In this document: piece after piece, positions 11,678-27,782 of the stretch | Layout: each line of letters opens with the position of its first letter | How positions within the stretch are numbered: the first letter of the stretch is position 1 | Source: a virus | Lineage: Duplodnaviria > Caudoviricetes | Length of the DNA stretch: 64,000 bases | IMG/VR virus record: IMGVR_UViG_3300037361_000044 | Location: 1 to 64,000 of that record | Reading direction: 5' to 3' (one strand) | Translations under genes and position numbers: made by a program | Notes under the pieces: model-generated | The model's input: the letters and a program-made list of their open reading frames with translations, nothing else | What the model was told of the DNA's origin: nothing | The model's database searches: none

Positions 11678-14600
11678 ATGGTGATGACCTCCAGCCAGAT
11701 CGCTCAGATGAACGGCAGTTTTCAGGCCCAATACATGCAGAACCAAAGCATGGCCGGGATGATACAGTCGCCTGGCTACAACCTCGGGGGCTACAATACG
11801 GGTGCCCAGAATGAGGGCATGGCCGGCGGCATGCTGAACAAGGGCATGGGCATCGGCGCGCCAGTGGCTACCCTGGGTATGGGTCTGATGGGTCTTGACC
11901 CTCTTTCCATTGGAATTCGCGGTGGTATGGCCGCTCACGGCATGGGTCTAGGTGTAGGCGGCTCCATGATGGCGGGCGCGGCGATGGCGGCACCCATGGC
12001 CGCTGGTGTGGCTGGCATCGGCTACATGGGCCACCAAATGATGTCTGGGGCGCAGCAGACACAGCAGTTCAACCAGGACATGCGCAGTGGCTACTCGTTC
12101 TTCAACCCGCACGGGCAGCATGGCAGAGGCTTTTCGGAGGGGAACATCCGCCAGATCGGTGGGAACCTGAGGGACTTCGCGGGGCAGGGTAGCGGAGGTG
12201 GCCAATTCGGCGGCACGATGAGCCAGTTCGAGCTCGGGCCGAGCTTCGCCGAGCTCGGACGCTTGGCGTCGGGCATGGGTCGGATGGGCATGGCTGATGG
12301 CGTGCGCAACGCCAAGGAGTTCACCGACAAGTTCAAAGAGATGATGAAGACGATCAAGTCCATTGCCACGGACATGGGTACGTCTCTCGAGGAAGCGCAG
12401 AAGACCATGGCCGCTATGAAGGGGTCGGGCGTCTTCAAGAACCAGGCGGGGGTCACGGGAGCCATCCGCGCAGCCTCGATCTCTGGCGGCTTGGCCACCA
12501 CCGAGGTGACCGGCATGATGAACATCGGCTCGCAGATCAGTCGCATGTACGGCGGTACCGGGCGACAAGGGGCCATGGGTGGCATCAAGGCCATCGAGCA
12601 GGTTGGCATGGCCGTTCAGACGGGAGCCCTGTCTGAGGAGGACATCTACAACACTACTGGATTGACAGGGGCTGAGGGGCGTCGAGCGATGGCCCAGCAG
12701 AACCTGATGCAGACGGGGTCGTTCCTGAAGTCCTCCAAGGGTCGCTGGATGATGGCCAGCATGGCGGGGAAGAACGGGCAGCTGGATCAGGGGTCGGTCA
12801 ACGACTTCTTGGCTGGCGGCATGAGCGTGGGCGACACCAGAAGCGCTGCTCACCGTAACCTCAGTGGGGTTGGGCGCGCCAACTTCATCCGGAATGAGGG
12901 GCGCTTGCGCGGTTCCATCATGGAGGAGTTCGGCGGCATGGCTCCAGCCATGGCCATGATGGGTTGGGCCCAAGGTAAGGGCATTGACGTCGCCTCAATG
13001 GGTGACCGCGAGATGCTGTTCATGCAACGGCAGTTGGGTCTTGGCCGCGACGAGGCCGATTCCATGGTGAAGATGGCCAAGGCTCTGCCCGACATGCTGC
13101 AGCACAGAAGTGGCGCCAAGCAGGATGACGCACTCTCCAGGGAGCACGGCATGCGTGCCCAGAACTCTGGGCTCGAGGGCATCAAGCGCAAATTGGACGC
13201 GGCCAAGGACAACGTGAACAACGAGATGCAGAAGGTCGGTCAGGCGGTGCTCGGCACCATGACCGACGCTGTGGCTGAGTGGGGCAACAAGCTCGCCGGC
13301 ACCTATGAAGAGCGCGCGTTCGAAGGGATCAGTGAGCTTCGTCAATCCCTGCACGGCGGCGGAGGTGGCGGTGTCAAGGCTCTTACAAGCGGGAAGTTAG
13401 GTAAGTTGTACGGTGCCGGCGGCGGTGAAAGCTTCGTGCACGAAGACATCGGGCAGGCGAGGTACCGCGACAAGATGCAGGGCCTTCAGTTCTCGGCACG
13501 CATGGCAACGTTGAGCGGGGTGGACCCGGAAGTGTCGAAGCTGCTGTCTGGTAATGCCGACGCTTTGTCCAAGGCTTACGGCTCGTCCGGTGGTCTAGCC
13601 GGGCTGGCCGGTGAGGACCGCCTTGCGGGGTTCAAGCAGAAGTTCGGAAAGGACACGGCTCTGGGTAAGCACTTCCGCAGCCTAGATGAGAAAGGTCAAG
13701 CTGCCTTCATGCAGCAGGCTGAGCTCTCCATGGGGATGGAGAAAGGGCTCCTCAGCGAGACTATGCAGGTGCCTGGACTACCGCAGCTGGTGGGCGGTGG
13801 AGAGGACCACTCGAACCAGAAGTCTCAGGAGAGGCTTGGGCGTGCGCTACTTGGGATCAAGTCCACAGAGGAGTCTTCGCAAGAAACAGCGGCGCAGCTA
13901 CGCAAGACCCAGGCGTCCATGGGCGGGAACCCGATGATGGCCGGCAGCGGTATGGATGCGGCCGCGGGTGCCACCATCTTCGGGTCGCTGTTCGGTGGCA
14001 TCATGGACTCGCTAAGCGGGACCAAGGGAAAGGCGCAGGCGGCTGGTGCCGTCTTCGACAACGCCGACACGCGCGAGCTGGCGTTCGATGTGCTCACTGG
14101 TGCCGGCGGTGCCACCAAGCGCTTGGAGAAGATGCGCATGGGCATTATGGGCGGTGCTGCTGAGCGCGGAGGCATGGATAAGCTCACGGACTCCGAGAAG
14201 GGGACCTTGGGGGCGCTATCCGCAATCGAGGTCACCTCCGACCTGAACAAGATGATCGAGGCAGCCGGCGGCGACATCAACAAGCTGTCTGAGAAGGACT
14301 GGGACAAGCTCATCGAGAAGCGCAAAGCCGCGGTGACCGCAGCCGGCGGCGATGCCGCGTCGGTGGACAAGGCCCATATAAAGGCGCTTGCTTCCGGTAC
14401 TGGACAGGCCGCCAACAAGGCGCGCAACGAGATCGTGGCAACGCTCGCCAAGCAGGTGGGGCGCACTGCTAAAGAAGAGTTGGAGGTTATGGAGGCAGGT
14501 GGTGTCACCGCGCTCACCAAGAAGGGTGGGCAGAGCCGTTTGGAGCTGACGGAGAGTGCGAAGCAGAAGCTAGCTGCCGGTGGCGCTGGCGCCGTGGCTG

Positions 14601-20200: not shown

Positions 20201-20385
20201 TCCACTCCAGGGCCTTTGGCCCCTTCAGTGACCTGTTCGGCTTGACAACGCCTGAAATAGAGAATGTAGTTGGCATACGCAGAGGAACTACCGCTGCGCA
20301 GAAAGGCGACACGCGCCGGGCGAAGCAAGACGCCGTCAAGGACTACTTGGCAGGCTTGGGACTTGGCCGTGCAATTTTAGGTTGA
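17230..20385 (+). CDS. Putative baseplate hub protein
   Basis: 1051 aa; LFLEGIEVP N-terminus, LFFTGELMGFEW, and R..TVSGRFNPYIALGFP features of hub-like proteins; synteny. Confidence 0.5.
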   Translation: MAAHALRLHLRLFLEGIEVPIVGIQLQGLPNAPLMAAIQIPPIPEGTRLLPRTLIHVFFRDPYEVVSPLLTSTRSSTDSNSPTDHQNNLARRQEQAAATTGDNATTVEDEATRYKLFFTGELMGFEWTKDQAQRSLILQCADLSNYWDYAYQWTNTDIFGPGLKAMFSGGSTNLLTDFLSSSGEVITNILRTPSITFPQLKGLAGGIVHLLEAIGGSYYYDKQIAGQNIFFTIAELRLHINQMIMAIENDPTTERLLALQGYSGMMTRLLGGMGGQTSIRQSITALQGIIFHETYAQPCPKYIPGSSSSAASTSRVRLADDKATAFVVTAATKCLEDIEGVKLQLHVADTRPDVSVFTTSKSVQGSLRQQITLRLRKMAQYLKSVTMQLKSVRPTAPKAESLLVTAAQQLGIAATATQKWTPNNATSIAAVESPLKLASYALKSLSNMTREASAKGKPTPPRLAQQILRPDVWFSAPPRCNVLFPEHYSRLSYKRSFMEEPTRLMLKTNDEFFGEDELFDRFYFAPKTKSVKKSKADLNAMLRNDLLEHELYTGILPVFEKMGELNIFAARGGVVKDRVPQVGLAQRSANFLYFKYRFAARQMTVSGRFNPYIALGFPGLVIDKYVDTSSLALHNELLQKAGQPTRDINKLLGTSFLGNFTQVTFNVNQASGSMDIVMSYPRQPEESVEFLGATDQDSSTVSKRFNKDAVRTTDVASIDQPSIESLGPNLGRITQVEDVSVLYRGSTQTGDPQDSMSSKPLLLFSKQSATRPRTPASRKSARVPVGVEVDARFLDKTTLQELGLLGTEGNTVNQDKFYAQARPVTIRAYRLQEEIPRYYQQQVDLPAEEYIRPGWYGDIWHPAKIGEAYDTFFSTGAITDPHTINDPSGGQGRATNNASSDAAAMAAETNDPNDPRKSALLAYQLEYGATIEQAAAYLQATYSHIKQSDLDVEEFIRAYTYRPIATMADLFGTRDLTLDTDGAVLAGVEGFHSRAFGPFSDLFGLTTPEIENVVGIRRGTTAAQKGDTRRAKQDAVKDYLAGLGLGRAILG

Positions 20386-21017
20386 TGCCAGTACTAGAAA
20401 GCTTGGTTGGACGGGTGTTTGGTAGGCTAACGGTGCTGGCTAGGGGCACCAAGCGGCCCGGCGTATTTTGGCTATGTGCATGCTCTTGCGGCAGTCAGTT
20501 TGTGGCCAGCGCTGGCGCTTTGAAGTGCGGAGACACGCGGTCCTGCGGTTGCTTGCTGCGCGAAAATGGAGTGGCGCAAGGTCTTGCTAATCGTCGGCAT
20601 GGAGAGAGCGGAAAAACCGTGGAGTACAAGGTTTGGAAGAACATGAAAGACCGCTGCTACAACCCATGTAACAGGCAGTACAAGGACTACGGTGGGCGCG
20701 GTATCGAGGTCTGTTCTCGTTGGCTTACCTTCGAAGCCTTCCTAGAAGACATGGAAAGAAGGCCGCCTGGTGGGTATACCTTGGACAGGATCGACAACAA
20801 CAAGGGATACGCCCCTGCTAACTGTCGCTGGGCTACCAGACTCACGCAGAACGTAAACCGTAGGACCACCGTCTGGATAGAACATGCTGGGATCACTAGA
20901 CATCTGGCTGGGTGGGCCCGTGTGCTTGGAATTGACCCGGAAACCTTGCGCTATCGACTAGCGCATTGGCCCAAAGACCGCGCCCTATCCTTGGCTAGTT
21001 CCACTTCGGCCCCATAG
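20385..21017 (+). CDS. HNH homing-endonuclease-like protein
   Basis: HGES..EYKVW..MKDRCYNP...YGGRGIEVCSRW..LDRIDNNKGYAPANCRWAT plus a C-terminal HTH. Confidence 0.88.
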   Translation: MPVLESLVGRVFGRLTVLARGTKRPGVFWLCACSCGSQFVASAGALKCGDTRSCGCLLRENGVAQGLANRRHGESGKTVEYKVWKNMKDRCYNPCNRQYKDYGGRGIEVCSRWLTFEAFLEDMERRPPGGYTLDRIDNNKGYAPANCRWATRLTQNVNRRTTVWIEHAGITRHLAGWARVLGIDPETLRYRLAHWPKDRALSLASSTSAP

Positions 21018-21035: not shown

Positions 21036-21269
21036 ATGCTGACGGAGCAAATCTACACCAGTTTCACGGACGAGATGCGCAAGCTGGCGGCCGGCAAGGA
21101 CATCGGGCAGCTGTTGTCGGGCTTGGCCACACGCACAGGCGCGCGCCCTTCGATGATCCCAAGCATCCAGCAAGCGAAGAACGTGGCCTTGAAGGACCGC
21201 GGGCGTGCCGCTGAGATTGCGCAGAATGTTCGTAGCGCCTTGAAGACCAAGCAGCTAGTGGCGGCCTAA
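21036..21269 (+). CDS. Putative internal virion protein (F-x-D-E-x-x-K-x-A leader)
   Basis: SFTDEMRKLAAG. Confidence 0.6.
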   Translation: MLTEQIYTSFTDEMRKLAAGKDIGQLLSGLATRTGARPSMIPSIQQAKNVALKDRGRAAEIAQNVRSALKTKQLVAA

Positions 21270-21271
21270 CC

Positions 21272-23089
21272 ATGACTGATGTCGATGAAGTTCCGTCCTC
21301 CTTGCTGTTCGCCGAGCTGCGGAAGGTGGCGGCATCGCGCGCACGCATGACTGTTCCGCAGTCCAGGTCCGGTCGGAGGTCGATGAGCGTCGACACCATG
21401 CTCAAAAAGGACCGCGCCGGGTCCTTATGGAAGGACCACCTTCCTGGTGGCTTGGCGGATAGGAAAACACCCGCGGACTTTCCTTCTGACAAGCTGCGTG
21501 AAGGCGTGAGTGTGGAGCGTGAACACGCCAGCGACCCCGCAATCCAAGCTGAGATCGCCATGGATCACATCACAGAGGACCCGAACTACTACCCCAAGCT
21601 CAAGCGCATGGAGGCCGGGGAGAAGCAAGCAGGTTTGATGGACGTCCTGAAGACGCCCATTCCTGGCACCAAGGACTGGTTCGTCAACACGGGCAAGGCT
21701 GGGTTGCAAGGAGCCAAGGCCATCACTGGCAAAGCTCCCATCGTACCGGCTATGCGCGCGGCTAACTCCGTCGTCCCTAGGGCTTCCGGTGCGATGCGTA
21801 CAGCGGGGCATGCCGCGCTGCGTGGCGGCAACAGCATCTCTGAGGCTGAGATGCAGCGGTTAGGCTTTGGCGATTTGCTGAAGTCAGGCGCCGCCAGGCC
21901 TGAGGCCACCCTCAAGGACTTTCAGGAGAAGCTCAAGCCGGGTGACATCCTGCTCACCCGTGCCGTGCACCAGTCATTGATGTCCAAGATCATCTCGGGC
22001 GTGCAACACAGTGACTTCGGACATTCCGCCCTCTACATCGGCAATGGCCGCGTCATCGATACACGCAATCGTGGCGAGGGCGTAATACAGACGAGCTTGA
22101 GCGAGGTCTACAAGAAGTGGGGTGGTGGTGGTAGAGACATCCGTGCGTATGCCCCCAGCGCCACGGCTGAGCAGAGAGACCAAGCGATAGCCCGCGCCAA
22201 GGAGCTTTTGGGCACACCCTACAATACCTTGGGTGCCGTGCGCTTGCTGCTACCTGCCGCCAAGAACAAAGGCATAGAACCGGGGAAACCCAAGAAGGTC
22301 ATTTGCTCCGAGCTGATTGCCAGGGCGTACCCGGACTTACCCTTTGCCGCTGGCAAGAACCGCGCCCATGTGCTGCCCGTGGACATTGCCAAGTCGCCAC
22401 TCACCGCAAGGGTGGCCGAAGTGAATCACGGGCCAGCCAAGGTTGCCTTCAAGCTGCAGGGGCAGACCTCGGTACAGGGGATTCCTATTGCAATTGAGAA
22501 TAGGAAGGTCTCCGTACGGAAAGGGACTGACCCCGACGGTACTCCGTGGCGCACCGTGTACAAGATCCCTTACGGGTACATCAAAGGTACCGAAGGAAAT
22601 GATGGTGAGGAGATCGACGCGTACGTGGGGCCGCACAAGGACGCTACCGAGGTCTACGTCATCCATCAGCACAAGATCGATGGCAAAGGCTACGACGAAG
22701 ACAAGGTGATGTTTGGATTCCTCTCTGAGGCGGATGCACGCAAGGCGTACCTCGATCACTACAACAAGGTCGGGCCCAAGCTGCTGGGACCCATCTCTAC
22801 CATCAAGATGGATGACCTAAAGAAGCGTCTTGAACAGCGGCGCAGGCACACCAAGCTCTCCTACGTCACCGGCGGCTCTGGTTCAGGAATCACCGGTAAC
22901 CGTATGGCCATGTTAGACATGGACGAGAAGCCGGAGCGCACGAAGCCAGGCGATGTACCCTCCATGGACGGCACCAACCCTGGTACGGCTGGTATTGTTA
23001 GGCGTGAAGCCGGGCCTGAGATGGCCACGGTGCTACCAACCAACGGCGCCCTGGCCAACAGCCAGACCGGTGCAACGACGAGGCTCTGA
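21272..23089 (+). CDS. Multidomain (polyvalent) protein: DUF5661-like + permuted papain-like NlpC/P60 (YiiX-like) + inorganic-pyrophosphatase-like domain
   Basis: GVSVEREH..EIAMDHITEDPNYYPKL; PGDILL..GHSALYIG..GTPYN..CSELIA; IAIEN..YGYIKGTEGNDGEEIDAYVGP..DEDKVMFGF. Confidence 0.8.
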   Translation: MTDVDEVPSSLLFAELRKVAASRARMTVPQSRSGRRSMSVDTMLKKDRAGSLWKDHLPGGLADRKTPADFPSDKLREGVSVEREHASDPAIQAEIAMDHITEDPNYYPKLKRMEAGEKQAGLMDVLKTPIPGTKDWFVNTGKAGLQGAKAITGKAPIVPAMRAANSVVPRASGAMRTAGHAALRGGNSISEAEMQRLGFGDLLKSGAARPEATLKDFQEKLKPGDILLTRAVHQSLMSKIISGVQHSDFGHSALYIGNGRVIDTRNRGEGVIQTSLSEVYKKWGGGGRDIRAYAPSATAEQRDQAIARAKELLGTPYNTLGAVRLLLPAAKNKGIEPGKPKKVICSELIARAYPDLPFAAGKNRAHVLPVDIAKSPLTARVAEVNHGPAKVAFKLQGQTSVQGIPIAIENRKVSVRKGTDPDGTPWRTVYKIPYGYIKGTEGNDGEEIDAYVGPHKDATEVYVIHQHKIDGKGYDEDKVMFGFLSEADARKAYLDHYNKVGPKLLGPISTIKMDDLKKRLEQRRRHTKLSYVTGGSGSGITGNRMAMLDMDEKPERTKPGDVPSMDGTNPGTAGIVRREAGPEMATVLPTNGALANSQTGATTRL

Positions 23090-23874
23090 TGAACTACGAA
23101 GAGATCAAACAAGCCGCATTCTTAGACGAGCTTCAGAAGATTGCCGAAGCGAATGGTGGTGTGCTGCCTGGTTTGGAGAAGGTGGCCATGAGCTTTGCTC
23201 CCATCACCAACGCAGCCAAGGCCGTCAACCCATTCAAGGGAGGACCTGGTATGTTCCAGCGGTTTGGACAGGACCTGATGCAGGGCGGCAAGATGCTCGG
23301 GCAGAACTCTACGAAGAGTCTAGTTGCGGGTAGCCATGTACCTGCGGGGCCTGCTGGACGCGTGATGGGTGAGATGGCGCACAGCGTAGGGCATCACTAT
23401 GCGCACAAGGGTACGCTCGCAAACATGATCAATCCCTTGGGCGGCGCCTTTGGCGGTCTTGCCGAGGGGGCTACGCGTGCTGCCGGCAAAGAGCTGGTGC
23501 GAGGCGGCGCAGCGATGGGCGCCAGCGGTGTGAGCGGAACTGGCATGGCGTCTCGTGCCATGGGCAGCGTAGGGCGTGGCATGCAGACGATGGCCAAACC
23601 CGTGGGTATGGCCGGTGAGGTTGCCGGCTTGGCTGGACTGGGTACAGCTGTGCACGCACCGCTGTCTTTGGCTGGTGCTGTGGGCGGTAAGATTCTCGGT
23701 GGAGCCGCCCACGCCGCGCCTGCTATTGGCGACATGCTGCATAGCTCTGGTGATGTGCTTGCCCATGGCGCGCATGACGTTGTGGGGAACGCCGCACATT
23801 CCTTGGCGGGCAAAGCGCGCTCAGCCATGGGGCGCATGACGGGATTCGGTAGACCAACAGTGGGAGTGGCCTAA
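23089..23874 (+). CDS. Gly/Ala-rich putative internal virion/ejection protein
   Basis: IKQAAFLDELQKIA...LEKVA leader then glycine-zipper-like repeats. Confidence 0.6.
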   Translation: MNYEEIKQAAFLDELQKIAEANGGVLPGLEKVAMSFAPITNAAKAVNPFKGGPGMFQRFGQDLMQGGKMLGQNSTKSLVAGSHVPAGPAGRVMGEMAHSVGHHYAHKGTLANMINPLGGAFGGLAEGATRAAGKELVRGGAAMGASGVSGTGMASRAMGSVGRGMQTMAKPVGMAGEVAGLAGLGTAVHAPLSLAGAVGGKILGGAAHAAPAIGDMLHSSGDVLAHGAHDVVGNAAHSLAGKARSAMGRMTGFGRPTVGVA

Positions 23875-25463: not shown

Positions 25464-25490
25464 GCAAGGTCTTGGCAATAAGGGGATAAG
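25464..25490 (+). promoter_or_regulatory. Phage promoter GCAA-N15-GGGATAAG
   Basis: Motif copy; predicted +1 (25497) begins the hairpin GCAAGAGG/CCTCTTGC ahead of GGAGG. Confidence 0.8.
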
Positions 25491-25528
25491 AGAACTGCAA
25501 GAGGACGTTTACCCTCTTGCGGAGGATT

Positions 25529-26134
25529 ATGGAACCTTGCCAAGTTGTGACAGCCTACTTGGCTGGCATCCGCTCATTGGTGGACTTCGACTCGCCACTG
25601 AACGAGAGCTATCTGCCCACGCTCGAGGAGCTCGAGGAGCGTAACTCGGAACGGGTAGCAAGCAGGGCAGCTCAGCACCTGCGCGCGTTCGCTTGCGTGG
25701 ACATGCTTGTGTACAGAAGCTACGTGGGCATGCCCTCCGGCTTGGGCAGGGAGGGTTTGTTTTCCACAAGGCTGAAGTCCAGTGCAGGATTGACCAAGTC
25801 CATTGCGCAGTTGCGTGCCGACATAGACGAGCTGCTGGGTGTGCAGATGGAGTTCGATATCAGTACGAGGTTGGTTGGAGTCACCCCCTCCTCCACCGCC
25901 CTGCTGCTAGCCGCAGCCAGTCCGGTGGTAGCCGCCAACCAGAAGGATGCGCTCGAGGCCTGCCAGGTACTGCGTAGGTCTTTGAAGAACCCGCGCGCAC
26001 GGCTGGGGCGTATCGGAAAATGCGCGGCAGCTACCGTCGTGCGAAGCGGGTACTCGTTACTGAAGATTTTCGAGTGGGCAAATATACTGCTTGCCAAGAC
26101 CGAGGAAAGTACAACATGGCCGAAGATGGAGTAG
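25529..26134 (+). CDS. Hypothetical protein
   Basis: GGAGG RBS and promoter; start MEPCQVV. Confidence 0.65.
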   Translation: MEPCQVVTAYLAGIRSLVDFDSPLNESYLPTLEELEERNSERVASRAAQHLRAFACVDMLVYRSYVGMPSGLGREGLFSTRLKSSAGLTKSIAQLRADIDELLGVQMEFDISTRLVGVTPSSTALLLAAASPVVAANQKDALEACQVLRRSLKNPRARLGRIGKCAAATVVRSGYSLLKIFEWANILLAKTEESTTWPKME

Positions 26135-26541
26135 AGGAGCTACCTGGGCTCCAGTTCACGGTGAAGGACGCAACGCTTGGCGGCAGCGGCACAGGCGTTA
26201 GGCATGGCCATATTCTCCTGCGTTGCACAGTGCTGGACCCGAAGCTGTTTCACATGGCAGCGGCCAAGCTGGACGGCTATCGAATCTTCAGCTCAACTGC
26301 CGAGGAGGTCATGGATGCCCTGACGGCAGAGCTCAGCAGCGTGGAAGATCGTCTGCAGGCAGCCAAGCGCCAGGAGCGTAGGCTTTTGGCTCAGATCGCT
26401 GACAAAGATGAGCAAATAGCAAAGATGCAGGGCTTTTTTCTCTACCCTGGAGGCAGACCTGGGCAACAAGCCGTGACCAAGGTACACTCACCAACGAGGA
26501 CGCACCATGCTTTCAGACGACCATCCAATCCGTGTCACTGA
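26116..26541 (+). CDS. Coiled-coil hypothetical protein; likely true end 26476 after a T6 indel
   Basis: GAGGA RBS; the +1 frame after TTTTTT gives STLEADLGNKP*. Confidence 0.55.
   Translation: MAEDGVEELPGLQFTVKDATLGGSGTGVRHGHILLRCTVLDPKLFHMAAAKLDGYRIFSSTAEEVMDALTAELSSVEDRLQAAKRQERRLLAQIADKDEQIAKMQGFFLYPGGRPGQQAVTKVHSPTRTHHAFRRPSNPCH
26480..26488 (+). promoter_or_regulatory. -10-type promoter AGGTACACT upstream of the K-x-A protein and sigma factor
   Basis: Same class as other TAnnnT elements found before structural genes. Confidence 0.4.
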
Positions 26542-26959
26542 CCCCAACTACAAGACCGCGGCGCAGAGCGACCTAGCGACGTGGCTGGCCAAAGAGGCAG
26601 AGGGTGGGGTCAAGCCCGAGAACAACGAGAACACATCGACTGTGCGGTACGGGGACCTGTACGATACCCCACCTGCGGCAAAGATGCCGCCACCTGCGGA
26701 TCCGCCGCACGCGCCATTCCCGCAGAACACTGAGAACTACACACGGGCGCAGAAGGAACGACGAGATGTCGCAGGACGAGCCTACGCCACCACCCCTGCA
26801 GCTGAGCAAGCAGACCAAGCTTTGCTTGGTGCTAACTTTGATCATGCTCGCAGCGGTGACTTCACCGCCCACTCCCTCCTCCTCCAATCCAAAACCAAAG
26901 AAGCGTCGGCCACGTTGAACGAGCAGACGCATCGACTGGGTCTCGGACGACGTGGCTAA
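26507..26959 (+). CDS. Putative internal virion protein
   Basis: GAGG RBS; YKTAA, AKEAE and TKEAS motifs. Confidence 0.6.
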   Translation: MLSDDHPIRVTDPNYKTAAQSDLATWLAKEAEGGVKPENNENTSTVRYGDLYDTPPAAKMPPPADPPHAPFPQNTENYTRAQKERRDVAGRAYATTPAAEQADQALLGANFDHARSGDFTAHSLLLQSKTKEASATLNEQTHRLGLGRRG

Positions 26960-27722
26960 GAAGAGTATGAATCCAGCAGAGGAGTTCCTAGACCATAAGC
27001 AGAAGGTCGCTTCCCGCAAGGCAGAAGACGACTTGAAGCTTTGGAGCGACTGGCACCAGGGCGGGAGAACCCCCGAGCTGCTGGACCCTCTGCTGCGCAG
27101 GTACGAGCCCCTGCTCAACCGCAAGGTGAATGAGTGGCGGGCACCCAATGTGGCGCCCACCGCCTTCAAGGCTGAGCTCACCAGGCACTTCATTCAGGCT
27201 GCCCAGAACTTCGATCCGGAAAGGGGGGTAGCCTTCAATACGCATGTGCAGACCAGGATACGGAAAGCACAGCGCTTCAACTCCAAGTACCAGAACATCG
27301 GGTACATCCCGGAGGACCAGGCAAGGCATATCGGCCCGTTGCGCACAGCGCAGAACGAGCTGACGGACGAGCTGGGACGCGATCCCACTCACGCTGAGCT
27401 TGCCAGCAGGATGGACATGCCCGTGAAGAAGGTGACCACGCTATTGGGCGTGCTCCGTAAGGATGTGCCTTCCTCGCACTACGAGACAGACCCAGCTGCC
27501 TTCTCAACAGGCAGGGAAGCTGACGTAGTTCGTCTCATTCAGCGTAGGCCAGCTGAGTATTTGAACCCAGACGAGGTGGCCGTGTTCAACCATATCTTCG
27601 GAGCGAATGGGGCACGCAAGATCACAGACACCACCGGTATCGCGACGCAGTTAGGATTGAGTCAGCCGAAGGTGTCACGGCTGAAGACGTCAATAGCAGG
27701 CAAGATCAAGAAGCATCTGTAG
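26952..27722 (+). CDS. RNA polymerase sigma factor, sigma-70 family group 3 (FliA/SigB/F/G-like)
   Basis: Region 2 AAQNFDPERGVAFNTHVQTRIR; region 3 ELTDELGRDPTHAELA; region 4 IATQLGLSQPKVSRLK. Confidence 0.9.
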   Translation: MAKKSMNPAEEFLDHKQKVASRKAEDDLKLWSDWHQGGRTPELLDPLLRRYEPLLNRKVNEWRAPNVAPTAFKAELTRHFIQAAQNFDPERGVAFNTHVQTRIRKAQRFNSKYQNIGYIPEDQARHIGPLRTAQNELTDELGRDPTHAELASRMDMPVKKVTTLLGVLRKDVPSSHYETDPAAFSTGREADVVRLIQRRPAEYLNPDEVAVFNHIFGANGARKITDTTGIATQLGLSQPKVSRLKTSIAGKIKKHL

Positions 27723-27749
27723 CCGCGCAAGCGGGATTCTACATCGGAG

Positions 27750-27782
27750 AAAAGGGTGGTGCAGAGATGCTCCGCCCTTTTT
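27750..27782 (+). terminator. Rho-independent terminator
   Basis: AAAAGGGTGG..GCA-GAGA-TGC..CCGCCCTTTTT after the sigma gene. Confidence 0.65.

Follow-up and report, generated by a model that had tools for sequence, protein, structure and literature searches.

The 64,000-nt stretch of DNA analyzed here (the window) is the first 64 kb of the virus record IMGVR_UViG_3300037361_000044 (Duplodnaviria; Caudoviricetes), which is 190,298 bp long and rated as complete. A gene for a sigma factor of RNA polymerase (open reading frame (ORF) 26952..27722, plus strand) lies here within a module of virion genes. This raises the question of which polymerase and which promoters the sigma factor serves, and whether it acts from inside the virus particle. 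The first-pass annotation of this DNA, made from the sequence alone, proposed that the protein is made late, packaged in the head, clipped at a K-V-A site and injected to drive early transcription.

The explanation considered here as the best one, in which our confidence is somewhat better than even, is different. The protein would be the phage's own three-domain, group-3-like initiation factor, which binds the single-chain beta-beta' RNA polymerase encoded by the same genome and steers it to about 20 promoters of the type GCAA-N15/16-GG(G/C)ATAAG ahead of small non-structural genes. The four-gene unit containing the sigma gene also stands behind a promoter of this class (the GGGATAAG class), which would create positive feedback. 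The first ~20 residues of the protein would be retained as the N-terminal half of a region-1.2-type helix and would not represent a capsid-targeting leader removed by a protease.

The sigma factor, its probable polymerase partner and its presumed promoters

The protein is a genuine sigma70-family, group-3-like factor. Its family membership, stated in the first-pass annotation, was confirmed by Pfam, PHROG, AlphaFold2 and Foldseek/VIA analyses. The ORF product matches the Pfam domain Sigma70_r3 (E-value 8.7e-11; 42 bits, the cut-off being 25) and phrog_351, annotated as "RNA polymerase sigma factor" (1.6e-15). At least 85 orthologues exist, mostly on contigs of 180–200 kb. In a set of 44 orthologues, Pfam detected region 3 in 42, region 4 in 35 and, weakly, region 2 in 6 proteins. 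The hmmsearch profile of these 44 sequences matched sigma factors of solved structure with E-values down to 3e-13 (SigA 3e-13, WhiG 4e-13, FliA 2e-7), the protein being no nearer to FliA than to SigA. The nearest isolated phages are Salmonella phage Arash and Vibrio phages D69, D181 and D148, with a sigma identity of 31–35%. A single-sequence scan of viral contigs revealed no relatives, and an alignment-based scan yielded 16 related loci.

According to the AlphaFold2 model, the protein is all-helical and consists of three domains, with a mean predicted local distance difference test (pLDDT) value of 89. In the secondary structure of the model, sigma domains 2, 3 and 4 (27072..27716, plus strand) comprise helices 41–114, 121–167 and 187–255; residue numbers here and below are counted from the GTG start and decrease by 5 for the ATG start discussed next. 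Foldseek gave E-values of about 1e-7, with 3e-8 for SigD. Structural comparison in VIA gave Z 12.3 for SigB of S. aureus over 205 aligned residues and Z 10–11 for sigma70 and sigmaS; the high root-mean-square deviation reflects mobile domains. The other top structural matches were SigD, SigH and WhiG. A member of the sigma70 family would be expected to bind an RNA polymerase core and confer promoter specificity.

The gene may start at ATG 26967 (26967..27722, plus strand; 251 aa) or at the alternative GTG 26952 (256 aa). Since orthologues usually begin with M-x-(x)-N-P, and translation from ATG 26967 yields M-N-P-A-E-E-F, ATG 26967 is most likely the start. It leaves a gap of 7 nt after ORF 26507..26959, and the overlap of the sigma gene with this upstream ORF, described in the first-pass annotation, occurs only with the GTG start.

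Outside the window, at 140812..147213 of the whole record (G000), the genome contains the gene of a 2133-aa RNA polymerase in which beta and beta' are fused, with the domains Rpb2_6 (8e-58), Rpb1_2 (4e-29) and Rpb1_5 (2e-20). Because the phage encodes its own polymerase, this enzyme, rather than the host core, is the likely partner of the sigma factor.

The word GG(G/C)ATAAG, which the first-pass annotation assigned to the sigma factor as its promoter, occurs 21 times in the genome. In its context, the word forms the second part of a bipartite element, GCAA(A)-N15/16-GG(G/C)ATAAG, with a GGAGG sequence and a start codon usually located 10–25 nt further on. A position matrix found about 20 sites of GCAA-N15/16-GG(G/C)ATAAG in the genome versus 0–1 in shuffled genomes. 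Sites of this class lie ahead of small non-structural and accessory genes. No two-part element was found ahead of the polymerase, terminase and head genes or ahead of the structural operons at 11678, 87848 and 92294, where the best scores were below 1 bit. The absence of a GGGATAAG promoter at the polymerase gene indicates that this gene belongs to another expression class. The element is also carried by the relatives, including loci whose sigma factor is only ~30% identical.

The sigma gene is the last of four tightly spaced genes (25529, 26116, 26507 and 26967). The phage-type promoter of this unit (25464..25490, plus strand) consists of GCAA at 25464–25467, a 15-nt spacer and GGGATAAG at 25483–25490. 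It is located in a 70-nt gap ahead of gene 25529, on the strand of the sigma gene, and scores 26 bits on the two-block matrix, which places it among the strongest sites (14–27 bits for the others in the genome). All six relatives that have a homologue of gene 25529 carry (T/G)GCAA, a ~16-nt spacer and GG(C/G)ATAAG upstream of it, giving seven of seven together with this genome.

The consensus of sigma28 promoters is TAAA-N15-GCCGATAA. The phage motif CAA(A)-N15/16-GG(G/C)ATAAG resembles this layout, and a G stands at the place of the final T that sigma70 requires in the -10 box. On these two grounds, the phage-encoded group-3 sigma appears to be the most economical candidate for the reader of GCAA-N15/16-GG(G/C)ATAAG, and the sigma unit would then be under a promoter of the sigma factor's own class. 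The proposal that the protein fires these promoters fits this picture. The related view of a group-3 factor with sigma28-like promoters is in line with the three-domain architecture and the resemblance of the motif; a special sequence proximity to FliA was not found.

The first-pass annotation also placed the sigma gene behind a TAnnnT element like that of the structural genes. This element, TGCTAACTT (26830..26838, plus strand), lies 137 nt upstream of the sigma start within ORF 26507..26959 and is missing in all nine relatives checked. It is most likely a chance match in coding sequence, the conserved promoter being instead GGGATAAG at 25483. For the structural genes themselves, the idea of extended -10 promoters retains some ground: the 70 nt ahead of genes contain TGnTAnnnT somewhat more often than expected (9 of 89 regions versus 2.7 ± 1.7), 11678 and 92294 among them, and a minor extended -10 class is possible for some structural operons. 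No second strong motif was found ahead of structural genes. A scan of the region 11–30 kb with the sigma70 consensus revealed 2 sites with 5.0 expected and gave no support for classical host promoters there. Enrichment analysis of 7-mers on crude gene calls gave nothing; the genes were subsequently called anew with a codon-usage score.

In addition, four strong GGGATAAG-type promoters are clustered within 1.7 kb on the minus strand (9953, 10901, 11108 and 11646), facing tiny ORFs only; they may drive small proteins or non-coding RNAs. In the genome of Arash (L001), the word GGTATAAGA occurs just upstream of gp9-gp10 (11586, plus strand; gp10 encodes sigma) and of gp21c (20678, minus strand). 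This word may represent the GGGATAAG class in Arash, with weak matrix scores of about 11 bits.

Possible packaging of the sigma factor and the order of transcription

The rival explanation that survives best holds that the sigma factor is packaged uncleaved, bound to the phage polymerase as a holoenzyme, and after injection transcribes the GGGATAAG units, including its own. The particle proteome of Arash contains the sigma factor Gp10 (24 peptides, 467 spectra, 100% coverage), the beta subunit Gp206 as the most-detected protein and also the beta' subunit Gp216. However, this preparation was purified only by a 0–45% sucrose gradient and pelleting, and 116 of the 272 proteins of the phage were present in it, among them ribonucleotide reductases, kinases and ligases; the authors allow that abundant enzymes may simply persist in the preparation (PMC10585845). 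Throughout the family, distant relatives and phage Arash included, the sigma gene lies inside the module of virion genes, which favors packaging, but the promoter of the unit is unlike those of the structural operons. The assignment of the polymerase gene to another expression class is consistent with a packaged enzyme.

A sigma factor transcribed from its own type of promoter also needs a first supply. This need counts in favor of packaging and is a difficulty for the explanation preferred here. The supply may come from read-through of the upstream virion operon or from the virion, so that packaging is compatible with self-promotion. No terminator is present between the upstream virion operon and the promoter at 25483, so read-through could give the first sigma molecules.

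Taking these points together, packaging of the sigma factor in any form is regarded as a tentative possibility, with the balance tilted against it. A little more doubtful is the fuller scheme in which the sigma factor and the single-chain polymerase, with or without trimming of the N-terminus, are carried in the particle and injected to start a host-independent, self-amplifying early programme from GGGATAAG promoters, its own included. The uncleaved holoenzyme is slightly less probable again and we consider it unlikely.

Another rival explanation is a classical cascade, in which the host holoenzyme reads the GGGATAAG promoters early and the phage sigma then redirects the host core or the phage polymerase to the late structural class. 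Redirection of the host polymerase is the usual role of phage sigma factors such as SPO1 gp28 and T4 gp55. The promoter type of the sigma unit is that of many small accessory genes and structural operons use another, both points in favor of such a cascade. On the other hand, the G in place of the final T of the -10 box does not suit sigma70, and no second strong motif was found ahead of structural genes, TGnTAnnnT being only mildly enriched. Moreover, phages of very different samples share the motif even where sigma identity falls to ~30%, and a phage-encoded reader fits this conservation better than varied hosts do. The classical cascade is thus judged improbable, clearly more so than the packaged holoenzyme.

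The N-terminal segment and the shared leader peptide

The remaining explanation, that of the first-pass annotation, depends on a K-x-A leader at the N-terminus of the sigma factor. A true leader does exist nearby. The products of three consecutive genes, 21036, 21272 and 23089 (21036..23874, plus strand), which form a separate unit upstream, share the N-terminal motif F-x-[DA]-E-[LM]-x-K-[LVI]-A-A, with F-x-D-E-L-x-K-I-A-A as the true leader. The leader-bearing product of 605 aa has three domains, DUF5661, Peptidase_C92 and InPase, of the kind that characterizes polyvalent proteins injected by phages (Iyer et al. 2017, cited through PMC7824862). All three gene products are probably head-internal or injected proteins. 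In the 16 related loci, 23 distinct leader copies were found, all near the N-termini of genes on the strand of the sigma gene. Elsewhere in the genome, the peptide was found at 65248 and inside the head-module protein 160881, at its residue 136. F-x-D-E-L-x-K-I-A-A is a real family-wide tag and plausibly a head-targeting signal.

A protease of the head reading K-x-A is also plausible, since this triplet is enriched in head-module proteins. In several of them it makes up about half of the lysine contexts, with 13 of 25 lysines in protein 149124 (p 3e-6). The enriched proteins all lie outside the window, at 149124..151166, 157241..158575, 130876..132321, 159169..161654 and 163228..163584 of G000, with p from 3e-6 to 3e-3. 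A tblastn search against isolated phages gave nothing for the capsid and protease genes.

The sigma factor does not join this group. The K-V-A codons (27003–27011) are followed by Ser, exactly as the first-pass annotation stated. On a matrix built from 23 true leaders, however, the sigma N-terminus scores 2.6 bits, with a median of -2.3 bits over the 85 orthologues, versus 21–37 bits for true leaders. The D-E-L core of the leader is missing, and the N-terminal peptide occurs in no other protein of the genome. The sigma N-terminus ranks 7th of 224 N-termini (p ~0.01 relative to shuffled sequences and 0.02 relative to internal windows). The claimed resemblance to the leaders of neighboring proteins hence does not amount to membership in the leader family. 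As for the block of K-x-A proteins that the sigma gene was said to end, the three upstream leader-sharing proteins are real, but K-x-A itself is enriched neither in the neighbors in the window nor in the sigma factor, where it accounts for one of 17 lysines (p 0.82, chance level).

In the AlphaFold2 model, residues 8–36 (26973..27059, plus strand) form one unbroken helix, with pLDDT 94–97 at residues 11–30, and K18-V19-A20/S21 lies in its middle; such a place makes cutting between K-V-A and S less likely. The helix occupies the position of sigma region 1.2: in VIA, model residues from 20–22 onward lie opposite residues 109–111 of sigma70. SigB of B. subtilis is aligned from model residue 9 and SigD from residue 18, which indicates that the length of the N-terminus is ordinary for a group-3 sigma. 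Over 84 orthologues, the conserved residues are N7, P8, F12, L13, K16, K18, A20, A/S21, K/R23, A24, D27, L28, L30, W31 and W34. Of these, F12, K16, A20, A24, D27, W31 and W34 share one helical face, and the small alanines at its center suggest helix packing.

Several observations weigh against a retained region-1.2-type helix. The Pfam domain Sigma70_r1_2 was not detected in any of the 44 orthologues, even at an E-value of 5, and the HMMER alignment of the segment with region 1.2 of SigA from M. smegmatis has an insignificant score of -1.5 bits, so the assignment is based on structural position. K18 and the A20-A21 pair are kept in ~88% of orthologues (K18 in 73 of 84, A20 in 74 of 84), and K18 lies off the conserved face. 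This part of the proposed leader conservation held, whereas the leader score did not. In the sigma factor, F, K, A and A also show the spacing that the four anchors have in the true leader. Finally, the sigma factor of Arash starts 13 residues later, without the N-terminal segment; the core function of the sigma factor consequently does not require the segment, which could have a different role.

The proposal of late synthesis, loading into the head by the K-x-A leader, clipping after K-V-A by the head protease and injection for early transcription draws on the F-x5-K-x-A-A spacing common to true leaders, on the conserved K18 and A20, on the enrichment of K-x-A in head-module proteins and on the placement of the gene in the virion module beside leader-bearing proteins, which is kept in distant relatives and Arash. 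In addition, a cut would leave an N-terminus of about the length of that of the native Arash sigma. These points are opposed by the low leader score, by a single, chance-level triplet in the middle of a helix (pLDDT > 94) that is aligned with region 1.2, by a homologue that is seen in Arash particles although it lacks the segment and by a GGGATAAG promoter unlike the structural-gene type. Clipping of the sigma factor at K-V-A is regarded as highly improbable, and the complete scheme of clipping and injection is the least credible of the explanations considered.

Some observations concern the leader-bearing genes and their surroundings. In the distant relatives L021 and L022 (6008–6694), the leader peptide directly precedes a helicase-like start, P-L-L-P-H-Q-Q-R-V-V-D, and in L023 (3861–7805) a 1314-aa protein opens with the helicase-like motif without the leader, suggesting that the set of cargo proteins varies between phages. 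An HNH endonuclease gene (phrog_374, 2.6e-69) is located at 20382–21017, between the gene of a 1051-aa virion protein and the first gene with a leader. Relatives L013–L017 show only a short gap at this place, and the endonuclease gene therefore looks like a mobile insertion.

The four-gene unit and its relation to known systems

The first gene of the sigma unit (25529..26134, plus strand) encodes a conserved 201-aa protein with tblastn matches of 30–35% identity in L012–L017; no match to it was found in Pfam, PHROG or Atlas. The second gene (26116..26541, plus strand) was called by codon usage and encodes a product of 141 aa without a Pfam match; a syntenic small ORF is present in relatives. 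The third gene (26507..26959, plus strand) encodes a conserved 150-aa protein and ends 7 nt before the sigma ATG, and the spacing between its stop codon and the sigma start is tight in relatives too. The 150-aa protein has 18 homologues, with conserved blocks at the N-terminus (T-D-D-x-P-I-R-I) and near the C-terminus (F-D-H-A-R-S-G-D-F-T-A-H-S-L-L-L-Q). According to AlphaFold2, it is mostly disordered with few helices (pLDDT 61), and it has no family assignment. Speculatively, it is a candidate partner or regulator of the sigma factor, and an FlgM-like anti-sigma was considered. The Pfam/PHROG and AlphaFold2 analyses revealed no recognizable anti-sigma factor, kinase or FlgM homologue upstream of the sigma gene.

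Three hairpins accompany the unit. The 5' leader contains a hairpin of 10 pairs (25497..25520, plus strand), which directly precedes the GGAGG ribosome site and ATG 25529. In L012–L017, a hairpin of different sequence was noticed by eye at the homologous position; that the place is kept although the sequence changes suggests conservation of an RNA structure, with a role in stability or regulation. The second hairpin (27717..27745, plus strand; GTAGCCGC-GCAA-GCGG ... CTAC) covers the sigma stop codon; L012, L013 and L016 carry an almost unchanged copy and L015 a similar one. The GCAA loop of the L016 copy is located ~15 nt upstream of a GGGATAAG word, and the hairpin may double there as the -35 element of the next gene's promoter. 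The third, terminator-like hairpin (GGGTGG / CCGCCC followed by TTTTT; 27750..27782, plus strand) closes the unit before ATG 27798. L014, L020 and L027 have a similar hairpin with a T-run after the sigma gene; in L012 and L013 it is missing.

Among cellular systems, the protein resembles group-3 sigma factors (B. subtilis SigB, FliA, SigD and WhiG) in having three domains and no region 1.1. As in the rsbV-rsbW-sigB operon of B. subtilis, the sigma gene comes last in a small unit that follows what is presumably its own type of promoter. Unlike in the SigB and sigma28 systems, the likely partner here is a phage-encoded polymerase, and the unit is devoid of a recognizable upstream regulator of the anti-sigma, kinase or FlgM type.

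The closest phage system is that of Arash (OQ632216; PMC10585845). Its sigma factor Gp10 is homologous (35% identity over 188 residues), and the gp10 gene has the same place in the virion module, after a large hub-like protein. Arash likewise encodes RNA polymerase beta and beta', in separate genes that are fused here. The Arash sigma has 234 aa and lacks the first ~13–20 residues of the protein described here, and its neighbors lack the F-x-D-E-L-x-K-I-A leaders.

The leader-bearing products of 21036, 21272 and 23089 are comparable with another phage system. In T4, the internal proteins IPI–III carry a capsid-targeting sequence that is cut off by the head protease gp21 according to the rule L/I-x-E. 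As in T4, unrelated protein bodies share one N-terminal peptide, cleavage being only putative here; the motif F-x-D-E-L-x-K-I-A-A differs from the T4 rule. The sigma factor, in contrast to the T4 proteins with a capsid-targeting sequence, has no shared leader peptide.

The virion RNA polymerases of N4 and of phiKZ and AR9 have been demonstrated to be packaged (PMC4496689, PMC7598289), and they use no sigma70-family factor (PMC7824862, PMC7598289). The proposed likeness to these systems, a concept invoked by the first-pass annotation, consists in enzyme genes located among late or structural genes, phage-specific early promoters and transcription independent of the host; packaging is established there by experiment and is a hypothesis here. 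Iyer et al. found no sigma factor in the polymerase-bearing group 1 jumbo phages (PMC7824862). In the description of a clade of polymerase-encoding tailed phages from metagenomes (PMC7481178), sigma factors are not discussed, and the word does not occur. Our search of the literature found no description of such a combination of sigma factor, polymerase and promoters beyond the gene annotation of Arash.

Phage sigma factors have been known as redirectors of the host polymerase, and the multisubunit polymerases of phiKZ and AR9 work without a sigma70-type factor. The ~190-kb phage family described here appears to join a bacterial-type polymerase, a canonical sigma factor and a private promoter class, with the sigma gene itself under its own promoter type. 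If this is true, the phages would offer an orthogonal transcription system that is compact and open to in vitro tests, and if the pair is also virion-borne, it would be the first injected sigma-dependent holoenzyme.

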